Shown piece after piece: positions 2,648 to 21,089 of a stretch of DNA of 64,000 bases. The DNA lies in the NCBI GenBank assembly GCA_951406725.2, contig OX597820.1:94674001-94738000 (forward strand), given 5' to 3'. Source of the DNA: Octopus vulgaris (Eukaryota). The translations under genes and the position numbers were made by a program. Below the pieces are notes generated by a model. The model ran no database searches. It was not told the DNA's origin and saw only the letters and a list, made by a program, of their open reading frames with translations. The number at the start of each line of letters is the position of its first letter. The first letter of the stretch is position 1.

Positions 2648-2668
2648 CTTTAATGTTGGTGGCAGTGG
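2648..2668 (-). CDS. Micro-exon copy (21 nt): (A)TATNIK; acceptor reads GG rather than AG (inactive or base error)
   Basis: aatatttccGG|CCACTGCCACCAACATTAAAG|GTAAGT. Confidence 0.5.
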
Positions 2669-4075
2669 CCGGAAATATTTAAAATACGTATTATTATACA
2701 AACAAATCTAATTGCAAATTCATATTCCGTAATAAATATTTGGAATATACTATATATCTTTTTATGATTACTCTAATAATTTCTGCAATCACTTCCTATC
2801 GTTTATTTACAAACAATTTACTTAATATAATTGACATGGAGGACTATATATTAAGATGAAAAGATATGTGCTTTCCAATGAAAATCGTTTAATGCATTAG
2901 CACTACCAACACCAATGGAAATGCAATGACATAACTATGATAAGTCTATTTACCTCACCGTCTTAAACATCGAGGAAAGGAACACGACATATAATATTGG
3001 CATTTAATATCAAATGAATATTATTCGTTTCGTTGATTACATATTTTCGAATTATGTGAAAAACACGACCTCCACATTGTTGCAGAACGTACCCTCAGTT
3101 ATTTACTTTAGAGACCATGGAAGGATTGATATTGCAATATACAGTAACGATAACATGCAGTTTACTTTATACAGAATTACAATGTAATGCTTTTATCAGA
3201 TATTTCTAGATATCCATTACCATTTTGTGTGCTATTTATCATACAAAAGTTATTAATAATCCAACATTAGAGCACCCAGATATAAAGACCGTTGTTTTCA
3301 TAGCGTTCATGTTGACACTGAATGATACATTTCTTTAACTGTTTCATATTCCTCCAAACCAAACATAACTATATCTATTTCTTTTACATTACGAATCTAT
3401 ATACTAAAACTATGTTTCCTACTGTAATTTATAAACACTTAAATTTCAATACTATTTAAATATGTCCAACAATATGCCGAATCTACAGGTATGTGCGTGC
3501 AACTTTCACAAACTCTAATTACTTAAAATTCATACTTTCTAACATCGTAATTTTCATTATTACCAAATCTTCCTAAAAATGATATCATTGATGATTACGG
3601 TAACTTATACTTTAGTGTTTGACCAATGCAACAGGTAAAGTAAATAACAGATATGTATCAATATACAGCAACATACATCAATACTTATTGTTTCACATAA
3701 TTTTATAATATTTACAACGTTTCAAAACATAAATATATTCGTATCTTTATAATAGTTCGTAATGAAAATATAAAGTGCTTCAAATATGGGCAGAGCTCGT
3801 GCAATTTTGTAGGAGATCAATTCAATCTTTTACATTAGGCCAAATTGTTGAGCGTGACTATATTTTTCCGCCTGGCACATGAGCTAATGCATTGATAAAC
3901 TTGCCGGCATTTCAACGCATACCGAAAAGAGACAGATGATGCTCAACTCAGTATTTTGGCCACACGTTAAATATTCTGTCAGTTGCTTACCTCAGGAATC
4001 TATCAATAAAGCGATGAATATTTTAATTGTAAAATTCATTGAAAATTAACTTATTTATATAAGAGCATCACTTAC

Positions 4076-4096
4076 CTGTAGCGTTGGTGCCAGTGG
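4076..4096 (-). CDS. Micro-exon (21 nt, phase 1-1): (A)TGTNAT, with N-glycosylation sequon
   Basis: aatattttcAG|CCACTGGCACCAACGCTACAG|GTAAGT; consensus splice sites. Confidence 0.82.
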
Positions 4097-5868
4097 CTGA
4101 AAATATTTAAAATACATATTATTATACAAACAAATCTAATTGCAAATTCATATTCCGTAATAAATATTTGGAATATACTATATATCTTTTTATGATTACT
4201 CTAATAATTTCTGCAATCACTTCCTATCGTTTATTTACAAACTACTTTACATAATATAATTGACATGGACGACTATGTATTAAGATGAAAAGATATGTGC
4301 TTTCCAATGAAAATCGTTTAATGCATTAGCACTACCAACACCAATGGAAATGCAATGACATAACTATGATAAGTCTATTTACCCCGCCTTAAACATCGAG
4401 GAAAGGAACATGGCATATAATATTGGCATTTAATATCAAATAGATATTATTCGTTTCGTTGATTACATATTTTGAATTATGTGAAAAACACGACCTCCTC
4501 ATTGTTCAGAATGTTACCTCAGTTATTTAATTAAGAGACCAATGAAGGCTTGATATTGGAATATACAGTAACAATAACAGTTTACTTTATACAGAATTAC
4601 AATGTAATGCGTTTATCAGATATTTCTAGATATTCATTTCCATATTGTCCCACATTGCTATTTATCATACATGTTGTCACTGAATGTTATCAACCGTTTA
4701 ATCCTCCAAGCCGAGCATTACCACATTCGAGCACCCAGATATAAAGAATGTTGTGATTCATAGCGTTCATGTTGTCACTGAATGATACATTACTTCAACC
4801 GTTTCTTATTCCTCCACGCCAAGCATAACTATAACTATTTCTTTTACATTATGAAACTATATACTAAAACTATATTTGCTAACAGTAATTCATAAACACT
4901 TAAACTTCAATACAATTTCAAAATGTACGACGATATGCAAAAACCTGCACGTATGTGCGTGCAACTTTCTAAGTACTTAAAATTCATACTTTCTAACATT
5001 GTAATATTCATTATTATCACATCTCCTAAAAATGATATTATTGATGATTACGGTAAGAGCTCTCGATAAAATATATTTTTCACAAACTCGGTCAGATTTC
5101 ATCACTCACAAAGTTTCTGGAAATTTCTATATTTCATGTCATTCATATAACCGTATATACTGCATCATTTCCTGAATCCTTTTTACATCCTACACATTTT
5201 CAGATCCAAATCGGATTAATTGTCTAAAATCTATTATTATTGCTGTCATCATCTTCCGTTCATTATACTAACCACATTCGAAACTGTGACATCATTTCCA
5301 TGTCAGTAGTAAATATTTATTAGAGATAATATTTGTAATGCATGTCATCTTTTGTTCCATAAAGTTTTACCAAAGTTCAAGCATTGTCACACAATAACTT
5401 ATACTTCAGTGTTTGACCAATGCAACAGGTAAAGTAAATTACAGATATGTATCAATATACAGCAACATACATCAATACTTATTCTTTCACGTAATTTTAT
5501 AATATTTACAACGTTTCAAAACATAAATATTTTCGTATCTTTATAATAGTTCGTAAGGAAAATATGAAGTGCTTCAAATATGGGCAGAGCTCGTGCAATT
5601 TTGTGGAAGATCAATTCAATCTTTTACATTAGGCCAAATTGTTGAGCGTGACTATATTTTTCCGCCTGGCACAGGAGCTAATGCATTGATAAACTTGCCG
5701 GCATTTCAACGCATACCGAAAAGGGACACATGACTGTCAACTCAGCATTTTGGCCACACGTTAAATATTCTGTCAGTTGCTTACCTCAAGAATCTATCAA
5801 AAAACGATGAATATTTTAATTGTAAAATTCATTGAAAATTAACTTATTTATATATGAGCATCATTTAC

Positions 5869-5889
5869 CTTGAATGTTGTTGGCAGGGG
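5869..5889 (-). CDS. Micro-exon (21 nt, phase 1-1): (A)PANNIQ
   Basis: aatatatccAG|CCCCTGCCAACAACATTCAAG|GTAAAT. Confidence 0.78.
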
Positions 5890-18611: not shown

Positions 18612-19350
18612 TACAGTGTTCCGAAATTAAGACAACATAAGTTTCAGGCTTCAATAGCTATCTTTAAATGTGATAAGATATGAAAATTATACATCATTAT
18701 AAAAGCTTCGTGTGTTTTCTTTGTGTTTCAGTCAATATAAATTCACACTTTGGAGTGTATCTGGTTCCGTCGAACTTTGGAGTGTATCTATCTGGCTCGT
18801 AAATCGACGTCAAAATCAAGTTAGTTATGGTTTGGGCGACTGTGACAGCCACTGAAAGGTCTTCCTTCGTTTTTTGTGCCATCGTGAGTTAAAATTAACA
18901 ACTAGCGATTCATTAGTGATATTCTGGAAGCTGAACAGCTTCCATGGGTGAATGTACACTTTCAAGATGCACCTTGGCGCCTCCAATAGGACTCGGCACC
19001 ATCCCACAGCTTCAAACAGACAAAACAATATTCCGTCGTTCATAGGCAAGGATGTATGGCCCTCAAAAAGCCCCGATCTCAATCCGTTGGATTTTTCTGT
19101 CTGGTTCATGCTCGACACTGCGCTAGGAATGGATTTCGATTCTGCAAGAACAGTTGCTTACCATATGTGAACCATTTGCACTTCGATTTAAGGCCGTGAT
19201 TCGAAACAGAGGTGATCATATCGAATAAATGTGGTATTGTCATAATTGTGTTTCCTTTATGATTGTACTGCAATGCTAGATGCGAAATACAACAATATTT
19301 TACTTTGACAAAATTGAAAAAAATTGGTTGCCTTAATTTTGGGTCACCCT
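18612..19350 (+). mobile_element. Internally deleted Tc1/mariner-superfamily transposon
   Basis: Transposase motif WPSKSPDLNPLDFSVW; imperfect TIRs CAGTGTTCCGAAATTAAGACAAC and GTTGCCTTAATTTTGGGTCACCCT. Confidence 0.75.
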
Positions 19351-19919
19351 ATGCTTGTGTATAGTTTGACCCCAAAGTCTCAGGCAGAGAAGCACAGCAT
19401 CTGTAATGGACTAAGAAGAAAGATATTGAAAGGGTTCCAATCGGCAACGAAAGAACTTTGACAAACAAAAACAAAACCAATGTATCAATGTTTAACCAAA
19501 TCAATCAAACAATCGATTAGTTTGTTGGATATGCAACCAATTGACTAATAATAAATTGAACTAGTGGAATTGAACCAGTGAATGTGTTAATAGTATTAGC
19601 ATAATGACTCTTCCTAGATACAACAATATATACACACATACACACATACACACAAGCACACACACACACAAGCACACACACACACACAAGCACACACACA
19701 CAAGCACACACACACACAAGCACACACACACACACTCTCTCTCTCTCTCTCTCTCTCTCTCTCTCTCTCTCTCTCTCTCTCTCTCTCACGCACACATATA
19801 TACGCACACATGCATTCAAACATATATATCAAAACCTGGGAGAAGGTAGGCGTGGCTGGAACAAGGGACACTATGGAGGGTGTAATGGCGCTTCGGCATA
19901 GCGAAGCAGTTCCTTAACA

Positions 19920-20560
19920 ACTGTATGTGTAAGCTATGTCATGTTTCTGTGGAAGACATCACGCATGTGATTAGCAGCTGTCCTAAAATGTCATCACGAT
20001 ACTACCTCCCTATGCAGCACGATGTTGTTGCTAAAACAATTTACAATGCCATCCGCAAAAAAGAATGTCCTGAAATAAACTTAGAAAATCCCTCTGTTAT
20101 GGAATACATTCACAAACAACAACTTAAGGAAAACTGGTGGAATATTCCCATCAAAACTTCTGTCAAATGTAAACATTAACAGGTCAGATATTGTTGTTTG
20201 GGTATGTACCGTCATAGAAGTCAGATGCCCTGCAGATATAAATATTTCTCTGAAAATCAAAAGAAAAGAAGATATATATGGACATATATATCATCTAGCT
20301 CTATATTCATAATCATACCAATAATAATTGGAGCACTAGGAGAATCTGAATAAACAGGGATTTTCAGAAAGAGAAATCGACCGGCTAATTCGTACATTAC
20401 AAGTGCAACTTGTGACTGGAAGAGTAAAAATATGCAAGACTTTTCTCAAGTTCCAAATGTGAATTTATCTGTGTTAACTACATCCCAAAGATGGAGTCAT
20501 GTATCTTTGTTGGAAACCGGCTACCTCCCCAATGGAAGATTTATGATAATTCAGAAATAG
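19920..20560 (+). mobile_element. 3' fragment of RLE-type (R4/Dong-like) non-LTR element ending at (CATA)n
   Basis: CKLCHVSVEDITHVISSCPKMSSRYYLPMQHDVVAK CCHC motif, DIVV..EV..P nuclease remnant, IPIIIGALG. Confidence 0.8.
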
Positions 20561-21043
20561 AAGAGACAGACATACATACATGCATACATGCATACGTACA
20601 TACATTCTCAATATGGAAAATACTTAGCACTCAAATGATTTGAATTTACACTCCGAAATTTTTATCAGGGACGGAGTCCACGAAGTAATGGGTGGCTATG
20701 AGAGAAATTCAGGTGAGCAGATAAGGATACAATGATGTATGTATGCATGTATTTATGTATGTACGTACATATATAGATACATGTATATGCTAAACTGGTA
20801 ACACGATCTCTCTTTTTCCATCTCTCTCTCTCCCTATATATATAAATATATGTATGTATGTATGTTATGTATGTATGTATGTATGTATGTATATGTATGT
20901 GTGTACATATGTATGTATGTATGTATGTATGTATGTATGTATGTATGTATGTATGTATGTATGTATGTATGTATCCATATCTGTAATAGAAAGTGCTAGT
21001 TTAGTGAAATAGTAAAAAAAATAGTATATCACACGATACTCAC

Positions 21044-21089
21044 ATGAAACTATGGCCACAACGACGATGAGAAGATATATAGTCTTCAT
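21044..21089 (-). CDS. First coding exon (signal peptide) of a putative secreted micro-exon gene: MKTIYLLIVVVAIVS + T (phase 1)
   Basis: Minus strand AAACATC ATG AAG ACT ATA TAT CTT CTC ATC GTC GTT GTG GCC ATA GTT TCA T|GTGAGT. A at -3, basic n-region, hydrophobic h-region, consensus donor. Confidence 0.85.

Follow-up and report, generated by a model that had tools for sequence, protein, structure and literature searches.

Repetitive-looking DNA of Octopus vulgaris is an expressed gene of many, mostly predicted, 21–33 nt exons, one per repeat block. The locus, whose 5′ part lies in the window that we analyzed (64,000 nt of contig OX597820.1, positions 94,674,001 to 94,738,000), is probably a micro-exon gene that is expressed, is specific to its lineage, and encodes a small mucin-like glycoprotein attached to the cell surface by a GPI anchor. 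A preliminary description, made from the letters of the window, had proposed a hidden micro-exon gene with a signal-peptide exon joined to a tandem array. This proposal held up: the junction is present in contigs from two studies, the frame stays open to the terminal exon, and the hemocyanin encoded in the genome is that of a cephalopod.

Exon 1 is spliced to the first micro-exon

The following features, all on the minus strand, make up the 5′ part of the gene.

21139..21154, minus strand: TATA-like run, some 30 nt ahead of the point where an RNA contig begins (21121, run X7); from the sequence
21044..21121, minus strand: exon 1, with a short 5′ UTR and 46 coding nt (ATG at 21089) that encode most of the signal peptide, and a phase-1 GT donor; from the sequence and the X7 and X1 contigs
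11197..21043, minus strand: intron 1 of 9.85 kb, containing microsatellites as well as retroelement-like pieces; from the sequence, and absent from the junction contigs
11167..11196, minus strand: micro-exon 1, 30 nt, phase 1-1, which completes the signal peptide and opens the mature chain; from the sequence and RNA contigs

The coding part of exon 1 (21044–21089) has the properties ascribed to it previously, that is, 46 nt, phase 1, an ATG start, a GT donor, and a location 9.85 kb upstream of micro-exon 1. The TATA-like run is a probable core promoter. The search of RNA data for the junction, which the preliminary description had suggested as a check, revealed contigs reading through from exon 1 into micro-exon 1 over the 9.8 kb intron in two of the four public runs compared (X1 and X7, from two studies); all four (X1, X5, X6, and X7) are RNA runs by automated guess, and X1 and X7 contain one junction contig each. 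When the junction was read from the loose ends of the contigs, micro-exon 1 being outside the aligned stretch, the X7 contig (108 nt, depth 148) was found to match 21043–21121 without mismatch and to continue with 19 letters identical to micro-exon 1. The X1 contig (176 nt, depth 30) covers 21045–21074, departs from the genome at the exon 1 donor, and carries 146 further letters, of which 30 are shown, matching micro-exon 1 at 26 of 29 positions. Nothing aligned on exon 1 in X5 and X6, which counts neither for nor against the junction. The runs were chosen from a search with 2400–11400, in which part of this stretch was present in 9 of 22 runs, with no RNA run on record; these shares served the choice of runs alone.

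In the 258 kb examined, the 19-letter junction core is restricted to the three copies of micro-exon 1, the 3′ half of which is variable between gene copies and in run X1. A retrocopy was rejected as the source of the junction because the genome assembly contains no processed copy of exon 1, and RNA editing was rejected as the source of the X1 differences because A-to-G is not represented among the changes relative to copies A or C. Exon 1 is transcribed and spliced to micro-exon 1; splicing of the units that follow is predicted from their sequence. Three additional loose ends in X1 and X7 (matches of 18–21 nt, at 21008–21025 and 21252–21272) belong to one unrelated contig, and run X7 also has a 10-letter loose end at 21121.

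The micro-exon array

Downstream of intron 1, the array consists of the following units and exons.

1..12160, minus strand: in-window array of exon-plus-intron units with a spacing of 1.2–2.3 kb; from the sequence
9332..9360, minus strand: dead unit with a 29-nt island and the donor AT instead of GT, alike in all three gene copies; from the sequence
8115..8144, minus strand: micro-exon 2, 30 nt, intact AG/GT; splicing inferred
5869..5889, minus strand: micro-exon 3, 21 nt, intact AG/GT; splicing inferred
4076..4096, minus strand: micro-exon 4, 21 nt, intact AG/GT, with an N-glycosylation sequon; splicing inferred
2648..2668, minus strand: 21-nt island with GG replacing the AG acceptor; from the sequence
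1250..1265, minus strand: unit with acceptor and island deleted (near 1257), the donor adjoining the upstream flank; from the sequence
Contig 94673867 to 94658959, minus strand: eleven 21-nt exons left of the window; from the sequence
Contig starts 94658022, 94655992, and 94650386, minus strand: three 30-nt exons left of the window; from the sequence
Contig 94647579–94647544, minus strand: 36-nt exon; predicted
Contig from 94642160, minus strand: terminal exon, with the stop at 94642098–96 and AATAAA about 270 nt past the stop; predicted

The five islands of the preliminary description (micro-exons 1 to 4 and 2648–2668) were all recovered on the minus strand, each with a GTAA(A/G)T donor and the last one with the GG acceptor already recorded; this last island is probably skipped in splicing. 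The units at 9332–9360 and near 1257 are additions to the earlier in-window list. The array extends 24 kb beyond the left edge of the window, and a leftward walk to the terminal exon, also suggested earlier, reached the 36-nt exon and a hydrophobic last exon. Altogether, this gene (copy A) comprises 21 units of 1–2 kb; in 18 of them the phase-1 exon (21 or 30 nt) is intact, and three are broken.

The GC content of the islands is 0.47–0.62 vs. 0.25–0.28 in the flanks. The multiple-of-three length and phase 1 claimed for the first islands apply throughout: across three gene copies, all 27 islands with intact AG/GT are 3n in length and stop-free in phase 1, and three of the five islands with broken sites are 29 nt long, where the counts omit two units without a measurable island, the 27 islands (length classes 21, 30, and 33) are related copies and not independent trials, and the three 29-nt islands come from one dead unit. 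Under a loose definition, chance AG...GT cassettes are common, with 54 on the coding strand and 69 on the other. Because the islands are related and such cassettes are frequent by chance, the splice-site pattern alone is weak; the case is carried by the RNA junction and by the frame-specific excess of amino-acid changes described below.

Units of the 21-nt class have flanks that are 95–99% identical, and three 4,513-bp higher-order repeats differ at 21–47 sites, indicating recent growth. A satellite or an RNA-gene repeat was rejected: Tandem Repeats Finder (period up to 500) yielded zero entries in 1–14,500, and Rfam yielded no matches in 104 kb.

Gene copies

Two further, near-identical gene copies, with four and five intact micro-exons, are located within 200 kb, and one of them lacks exon 1. 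Copy B is predicted to encode a complete product of 82 aa from four micro-exons, and copy C includes one exon of 11 codons (33 nt). Genome searches with the unit, the acceptor motif, exon 1, and the terminal exon as queries found this cluster alone. Over many kb, the aligned introns of copies A and B differ at only about 0.2–1% of sites. Allelic variation could be this large, so that the two might be a single locus whose alleles the assembly has set one after the other, in which case the family would have fewer than three genes. We consider this possible but doubtful given that copy C, which is more diverged (about 1–3%), lies inverted between A and B and has its upstream DNA in common with B, in a head-to-head arrangement; these features of C point to a real segmental duplication. 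If B were nevertheless allelic, the alleles would be 14 exons apart, which would make a stronger case for polymorphism.

Micro-exons diverge faster than their flanks

The divergence of the micro-exons is about six times that of the flanking introns, and nearly all changes alter amino acids. Along 18 tree edges (picked on flank distance), the islands differ at 42 of 414 sites and the flanks at 187 of 10,703. For the same edges, pN is 0.14 and pS is 0.025 (p = 0.002), and a stricter minimal count scored 37 changes as nonsynonymous and 5 as synonymous (pN/pS 2.7, p = 0.018); these p-values are approximate because the repeat units are related and may exchange sequence. The pN/pS ratio of 2.7–5.5 is confined to the predicted frame, with no excess in any of the five other frames. 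By codon position, the changes number 15, 20, and 7, the third position being the least changed. Micro-exon 1 shows three differences in 30 sites between copies A and B, all nonsynonymous, vs. 0 of 595 in the flanks. These comparisons show that the predicted micro-exons carry a signature of diversifying selection.

Tandem repeats such as these units are open to gene conversion, and the SmPoMuc repeats are reported to evolve in concert in their introns only (PMC2576457). Conversion that homogenizes introns and spares exons, or local hypermutation, could thus underlie the fast change of the islands in place of selection on the protein. This explanation is unlikely, however, because synonymous divergence in the islands (0.025) is similar to the divergence of the flanks (0.0175; p = 0.69), with nonsynonymous divergence being 8-fold higher. 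The least-changed third codon positions and the position-matched comparison of micro-exon 1 between copies A and B likewise speak against conversion and hypermutation and for selection on the encoded protein.

The same data bear on whether the block of 21-nt units is used. The RNA evidence stops short of the 21-nt block, the 21-nt exons in near-identical flanks may splice poorly, copy B attains a complete product with just 4 micro-exons, and 3 of the 21 units of copy A are broken, all of which would fit a homogeneous 21-nt block that is an intronic, satellite-like expansion, mostly skipped, with only a few outer exons in use. Such an expansion appears improbable: AG and GTAAGT are kept in all 11 units left of the window, and over the intact 21-nt units, 15 in number, 19 extra alleles fall in the bin of the island, against 0–6 per bin in the 14 flanking bins. 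Furthermore, 20 of the 23 changes in the 21-nt class are nonsynonymous, a bias for which an unspliced repeat would not account, and we favor a gene in which the units of this block, too, serve as exons. The constant exons are nearly unchanged (0 of 46, 0–1 of 36, and 0 of 65 sites), a near-identity no greater than the low intron background predicts.

Predicted protein and anchor signal

The spliced reading frame encodes 189 aa in copy A and 82 aa in copy B, and it reproduces the translation given in the preliminary description along with its two N-glycosylation sequons. In copy A, a signal peptide is followed by Thr/Ala/Pro/Asn-rich repeats and a GPI-anchor-type signal. The N-terminus is hydrophobic (9-residue hydropathy peak 3.9). 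The mature chain, of about 140 residues in A and about 30 in B, has no Cys or aromatic residue; in copy A, it consists of 29% Thr, 17% Ala, 14% Pro, 11% Asn, and 4% Ser (Thr+Ser about 32% of about 139 residues) and should form an extended stalk with dense O-glycosylation. No protein homologs were found among 1.84 billion representatives with a 32-codon frame including the terminal exon as the query, an insensitive test.

In the GPI signal layout of PMC2571997, residues omega-1 to omega+2 are small, a spacer extends to omega+9, and everything from omega+10 onward forms a hydrophobic tail. The predicted 3′ exons fit this layout, with Ser -31 as omega, small residues at omega+1 and omega+2, a 7-residue spacer, and an uncharged tail of 21 residues (mean hydropathy of the last 20, 1.75), for a GPI-type C-terminus of 33 aa. 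The two exons were chosen by eye and predicted from the sequence. The 24 kb downstream contain 69 acceptor-like sites, and only that of the 36-nt exon opens a phase-1 exon that is symmetric, free of stops, and followed by a GTAAG donor. With the same filter, a second hydrophobic-tail candidate was found at 94649407, inside an insert missing from copy B, and the opposite strand gave one match of each kind, so that the chance level is about one.

The predicted 3′ exons left of the window specify a tail of the GPI-anchor type, which makes attachment to the cell surface a likelier fate of the product than free secretion. The secreted glycoprotein of the preliminary description thus stands with respect to the signal peptide, but probably not with respect to free secretion. 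A real gene with a secreted product would imply transcripts that stop before the anchor exons or take another last exon. The RNA comparison covered exon 1 and the first junction; the SmPoMuc proteins, whose genes come closest in layout, are secreted (PMC2576457); and many units have a strong GTAAGC donor about 115 nt past the island, with an AG 9 nt before it, enclosing a 9-nt piece that would provide a phase-1 stop. Nevertheless, we deem secretion quite unlikely, given that the frame runs on through the two downstream exons, which are bounded by strong splice sites, occur in all three copies, and show the expected omega-spacer-tail spacing. An anchored product remains the preferred reading.

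Proposed mechanism

Exon 1 supplies the signal peptide, and every 1–2 kb unit would add a single phase-1 exon, 7 or 10 codons long (11 once, in copy C). Since such exons are symmetric, units could be gained, lost, killed, or skipped without a frame shift. The 36-nt exon and the hydrophobic last exon would provide the anchor signal, unequal crossing-over would expand the array, and selection would reward amino-acid change in the exposed micro-exons. The product would most likely form a surface coat or serve in recognition, with microbes, parasites, or the cells or gametes of other individuals as the opposing side of a conflict. Tentatively, one could go further and envisage a hypervariable surface-recognition locus, where a GPI-anchored glycopeptide is assembled from interchangeable exon modules of 7–11 residues and diversified simultaneously via selected amino-acid change, unit number (among alleles and copies), and exon skipping (among cells or tissues), for self/non-self, pathogen, or gamete recognition. 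If so, this would be an independently evolved, host-side counterpart of the micro-exon strategy of parasitic flatworms. For cephalopod immunity or reproduction, the gene provides a concrete candidate recognition molecule of a polymorphic kind.

Comparison with known systems

The Schistosoma-like layout claimed in the preliminary description is borne out by the operational definition of micro-exon genes (MEGs; PMC7653826) and by the similarity to SmPoMuc. With respect to the definition, there are 21 predicted exons in copy A and 7 in copy B (at least 7 required; exons 1 and 2 seen in RNA), micro-exons account for 19 of the 21 and 5 of the 7, and the predicted runs of consecutive micro-exons are 19 and 5 long (at least 4 required). 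A signal peptide and a secreted or membrane-anchored product, the functional sense of the term (PMC4350168), are indicated by the hydrophobic N-terminus and the C-terminal tail. As described in PMC2576457, SmPoMuc shares with the octopus gene a signal peptide followed by mucin-like repeats with one tiny exon per repeat (27 nt there, 21–33 nt here), tandem units of about 1 kb (here 1–2 kb) with near-identical introns and up to about 20 units, and a clustered multigene family with pseudogenes in which exons diverge more than introns. By contrast, the SmPoMuc products are secreted and include a conserved C-terminal region of 234 residues, encoded by 13 further exons, and their genes contain inter-unit microsatellites and an intronic hammerhead ribozyme (PMC2576457), whereas the octopus gene has no 234-aa domain, a GPI-type tail after the array, and no Rfam family in 104 kb. 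The likeness is one of layout in a free-living cephalopod, and no homology is claimed.

Flatworm MEGs in general, according to PMC4350168 and PMC7653826, have a coding region mostly on very small symmetric exons, a signal peptide, secreted or membrane-anchored products, tandem clusters, and intronic transposon insertions, as here; in them, too, the mature part changes more quickly than the signal peptide. Exon skipping has been demonstrated for MEGs, and their mature-region dN/dS reaches about 1.1 between species (both from the same sources), a different kind of comparison from the pN/pS among paralogous exons given above. MEGs as described appear to be restricted to platyhelminths (PMC4350168), and the octopus gene, from a cephalopod host, probably does not belong to the flatworm families by descent. 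No published case of such a cephalopod gene was found in the literature searched. Micro-exon genes have so far been regarded as a device of flatworm parasites; the same layout in a free-living mollusc, together with a predicted GPI anchor and a strong amino-acid-changing bias confined to micro-exons, suggests a convergent way to vary a surface coat. Genes of this class are likely to be overlooked by short-read alignment and repeat masking. A simple screen would look for kb-scale tandem repeats with one GC-rich, AG/GT-bounded island of 3n length that diverges faster than its flanks.

The alpha-s caseins and endomucin of vertebrates are low-complexity extracellular proteins that have grown by duplication of short in-frame exons and undergo exon skipping. 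Their introns are older and diverged, in contrast to the young tandem array of 95–99% identical units described here, and they come from another lineage and are proteins of another type. Their existence shows that flatworms are not alone in the general design of small symmetric exons. CD24 and CD52 consist of a signal peptide, a short Thr/Ser/Pro-rich glycosylated core without a folded domain, and a GPI signal. To our knowledge, neither these cores nor those of the Trypanosoma cruzi TcMUC mucins are made from micro-exon arrays. The octopus protein resembles CD24/CD52-type glycopeptides and the TcMUC GPI mucins (for the latter, PMC2576457) in signal peptide, core, and GPI signal. Finally, the sponge GranRep and Ciona YYD repeat genes (PMC11703226) resemble the octopus gene in having a signal peptide, short polymorphic repeats, predicted or expected O-glycosylation, and a small gene family, and in being overlooked by standard annotation, as is likely for the octopus gene too; GranRep differs in that the repeats lie within one exon of 3-exon genes and the products are predicted to be secreted (PMC11703226).

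Structure and copies of the gene

The five GC-rich islands and the phase-1 exon of 46 nt lying 9.85 kb upstream of the array, on which the preliminary description of a hidden micro-exon gene (MEG) had been built, were all recovered, the islands with the proposed lengths, splice sites and GC contrast.

21044–21089, minus strand: exon 1
11167–11196, 8115–8144, 5869–5889, 4076–4096 and 2648–2668, minus strand: islands (micro-exons), the last with a GG acceptor

The tandem units in the window are 1.2–2.3 kb long and 70–96% alike; two further units there carry a 29-nt island with an AT donor and a deleted island, respectively. 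When 194 kb to the left of the window were examined for the rest of the gene, the suggested leftward walk reached a terminal exon. This copy (copy A) comprises 21 units, 18 of them with an exon between intact AG and GT sites: first two exons of 30 nt, then 13 of 21 nt and then three more of 30 nt, followed by a 36-nt phase-1 exon and a last exon with 21 codons and a stop, about 270 nt past which there is an AATAAA. Nine of the 21-nt units are arranged as three 4,513-bp higher-order repeats, with 21, 38 and 47 sites differing among them. Because these repeats are nearly identical, the array of copy A grew recently.

Two more copies were found on the same contig (G000:C7 in the genome assembly G000), and searches of the assembly found none beyond these three. 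Copy B (minus strand, about 94.48–94.53 Mb) has a coding exon 1 identical to that of copy A, seven units, four of them intact, and a frame of 82 residues. In its third unit (G000:C7:94,507,678), the donor region is deleted, leaving a weak GT 21 nt past the acceptor that would keep the frame if used. The sequences of copies A and B are similar enough that the two may be alleles of a single locus, wrongly placed in the assembly. Copy C (plus strand, about 94.53–94.59 Mb) has six units, five of them intact, and a deletion of about 230 nt takes out its TATA-like run and exon 1. Although its promoter and exon 1 are gone (G000:C7:94,538,894), its five micro-exons remain intact, keep the frame and have diverged by nonsynonymous changes; copy C may be a pseudogene of recent origin or a source of sequence for conversion.

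Islands were measurable in 32 of the 34 units of the three copies. All 27 intact islands are multiples of 3, whereas three of the five broken ones are not. Since both ends of every exon are in phase 1, the gain, mutation or loss of a unit leaves the frame intact, and dead units would just turn into intron. This frame neutrality accounts for the 18 exons of copy A versus four in copy B.

Two features of the introns were also observed. The intron preceding the last micro-exon of copy A contains a PIF1-like helicase fragment in two frames, presumably of the Helitron type, judging by its motifs. According to PMC4350168, introns of MEGs carry transposon insertions. In addition, a strong donor-like GAG/GTAAGC, with an AG 9 nt ahead of it, is present about 115 nt past each island, except in the first and last units. 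If spliced in, the 9-nt piece would introduce a phase-1 stop and yield a product without an anchor.

L003:8303–9531 (G000:C7, about 94,652,300–94,653,530): PIF1-like helicase fragment
Window about 8024–8034, 5789–5800, 3991–4003 and 2563–2575, and the equivalent place in other units, minus strand: donor-like sites, read by eye

Transcription and the first splice junction

The gene is transcribed. Four public runs from four studies, presumed by an automatic guess to be RNA, were compared with window positions 20980–21278, and two of them (X7 and X1) gave cover. The X7 contig matches 21043–21121 without difference, including the sole 5′ UTR site that separates copy A from copy B, and the 19 letters that follow exon 1 in it are those of micro-exon 1. 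The contig of X1 covers 21045–21074 and has 146 further letters; in the 30 that were examined, micro-exon 1 is matched at 26 of 29 positions, the contig differing from the genome at the last base of exon 1 and in the 3′ half of micro-exon 1. The contigs exit at GT and resume after an AG 9.85 kb away, and no processed copy of exon 1 was found in G000; therefore, they are best read as spliced RNA. The proposal that transcripts join these exons thus holds for the first junction, from exon 1 to micro-exon 1. The other micro-exons would likewise be included in the mRNA.

Divergence of the micro-exons

Flank distance alone was used to join intact units of the same length, with flanks less than 10% apart, in a minimum spanning tree. 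The islands evolve far more rapidly than the flanks: over the 18 edges of the tree, 42 of 414 island sites differ, compared with 187 of 10,703 flank sites. Nonsynonymous divergence of the islands is 0.14, and synonymous divergence is 0.025, on par with the flanks (p = 0.002 for the excess). A stricter count sorted the distinct island sequences into five classes, used minimal trees within them and chose the path with the most synonymous changes; it omitted two copy C islands that lack a close relative, as well as three others of 21 or 30 nt that were dead or of a single type. It gave 37 nonsynonymous versus five synonymous changes (pN/pS 2.7, p = 0.018), where both p-values are guides only, since the units share ancestry and gene conversion may act between them. 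The same count in the other five reading frames gave pN/pS values of 0.42–1.36, none of them significant. Micro-exon 1 exists in four versions across copies A, B and C and the X1 contig; of these, the three in the genome are separated by nonsynonymous changes only. This amino-acid-biased change supports diversifying selection as well as translation of the islands, the 21-nt ones included, in the predicted frame.

The predicted product

The frame of copy A is open over 189 residues and hydrophobic at both the N-terminus and the C-terminus. Its middle part of about 139 residues (Thr 29%, Ala 17%, Pro 14%, Asn 11%, Gly 10%) has no Cys and no aromatic residue, and the frame holds two N-glycosylation sequons. 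The last 33 residues fit the GPI-signal layout of PMC2571997, with Ser −31 as omega, then Ala-Ala, a polar spacer of seven residues and 21 uncharged residues to the end. A GPI-anchored surface glycoprotein is the likely product. Its signal peptide would be cleaved, the GPI attached and the chain O-glycosylated, and it may act at an interface under conflict.

In a control over 24 kb downstream, 69 acceptor-like sites yielded two hydrophobic tails and a single exon that was symmetric, free of stops and followed by a GTAAG donor, namely the 36-nt exon itself; on the opposite strand, 93 sites yielded one exon and one tail. Each taken alone, the 36-nt exon and the tail are near the chance level, and the case for the 3′ exons is made by their order, frame, spacing and presence in all copies. 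A strong acceptor at G000:C7:94,649,407, followed by an 18-codon hydrophobic frame, lies in an insert found in copies A and C and missing from copy B; it is probably due to chance and possibly an alternative last exon.

Comparison with known micro-exon genes

The gene model shows all three operational features of MEGs given in PMC7653826. According to PMC4350168, MEGs are apparently restricted to platyhelminths and have dN/dS values of up to about 1.1 in the mature region. The closest layout is that of SmPoMuc, where, according to PMC2576457, a 27-nt exon recurs up to 20 times, each time in a tandem unit about 1 kb long; unlike the predicted octopus product, SmPoMuc is secreted and has a long C-terminal region. 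The octopus gene works like the MEG and SmPoMuc genes without belonging to them by descent. Vertebrate small-exon repeat genes (caseins, endomucin) and CD24/CD52 offer parallels, so the gene is not categorically new. No description of such a cephalopod gene was found in a literature search that covered mainly freely accessible papers, nor in PMC11703226; the gene tables of genome papers could list the locus as an uncharacterised protein. The locus is a real and expressed cluster of micro-exon genes in a cephalopod; it is apparently undescribed, and its product is probably GPI-anchored and under diversifying selection.

Genomic setting

Retroelement-like open frames, with reverse transcriptase or endonuclease motifs recognized by eye, lie upstream of the gene and in intron 1.

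42880–44733, plus strand
32456–34186, minus strand
44817–46001, minus strand
23416–23871, plus strand
39339–39890, plus strand
13000–15300, no strand assigned

The source genome of the window (G000:C7:94,674,001–94,738,000) is 2.8 Gb in size and has 38 matches to molluscan hemocyanin (PF14830), versus none in 14 control genomes. The best scores of one functional unit were 667 bits (PDB 6r83/4yd9) and 659 bits (1js8), all three of these being squid and octopus entries; single units of the other entries listed gave no more than 504. A cephalopod source is therefore likely. The hemocyanin genes lie at three loci (G000:C27:16.19–16.25 Mb, C5:96.83–96.92 Mb and C28:28.65 Mb). At C27, the two genes have the same scores and form an inverted duplication; at C5, several units have a TAG within the match.
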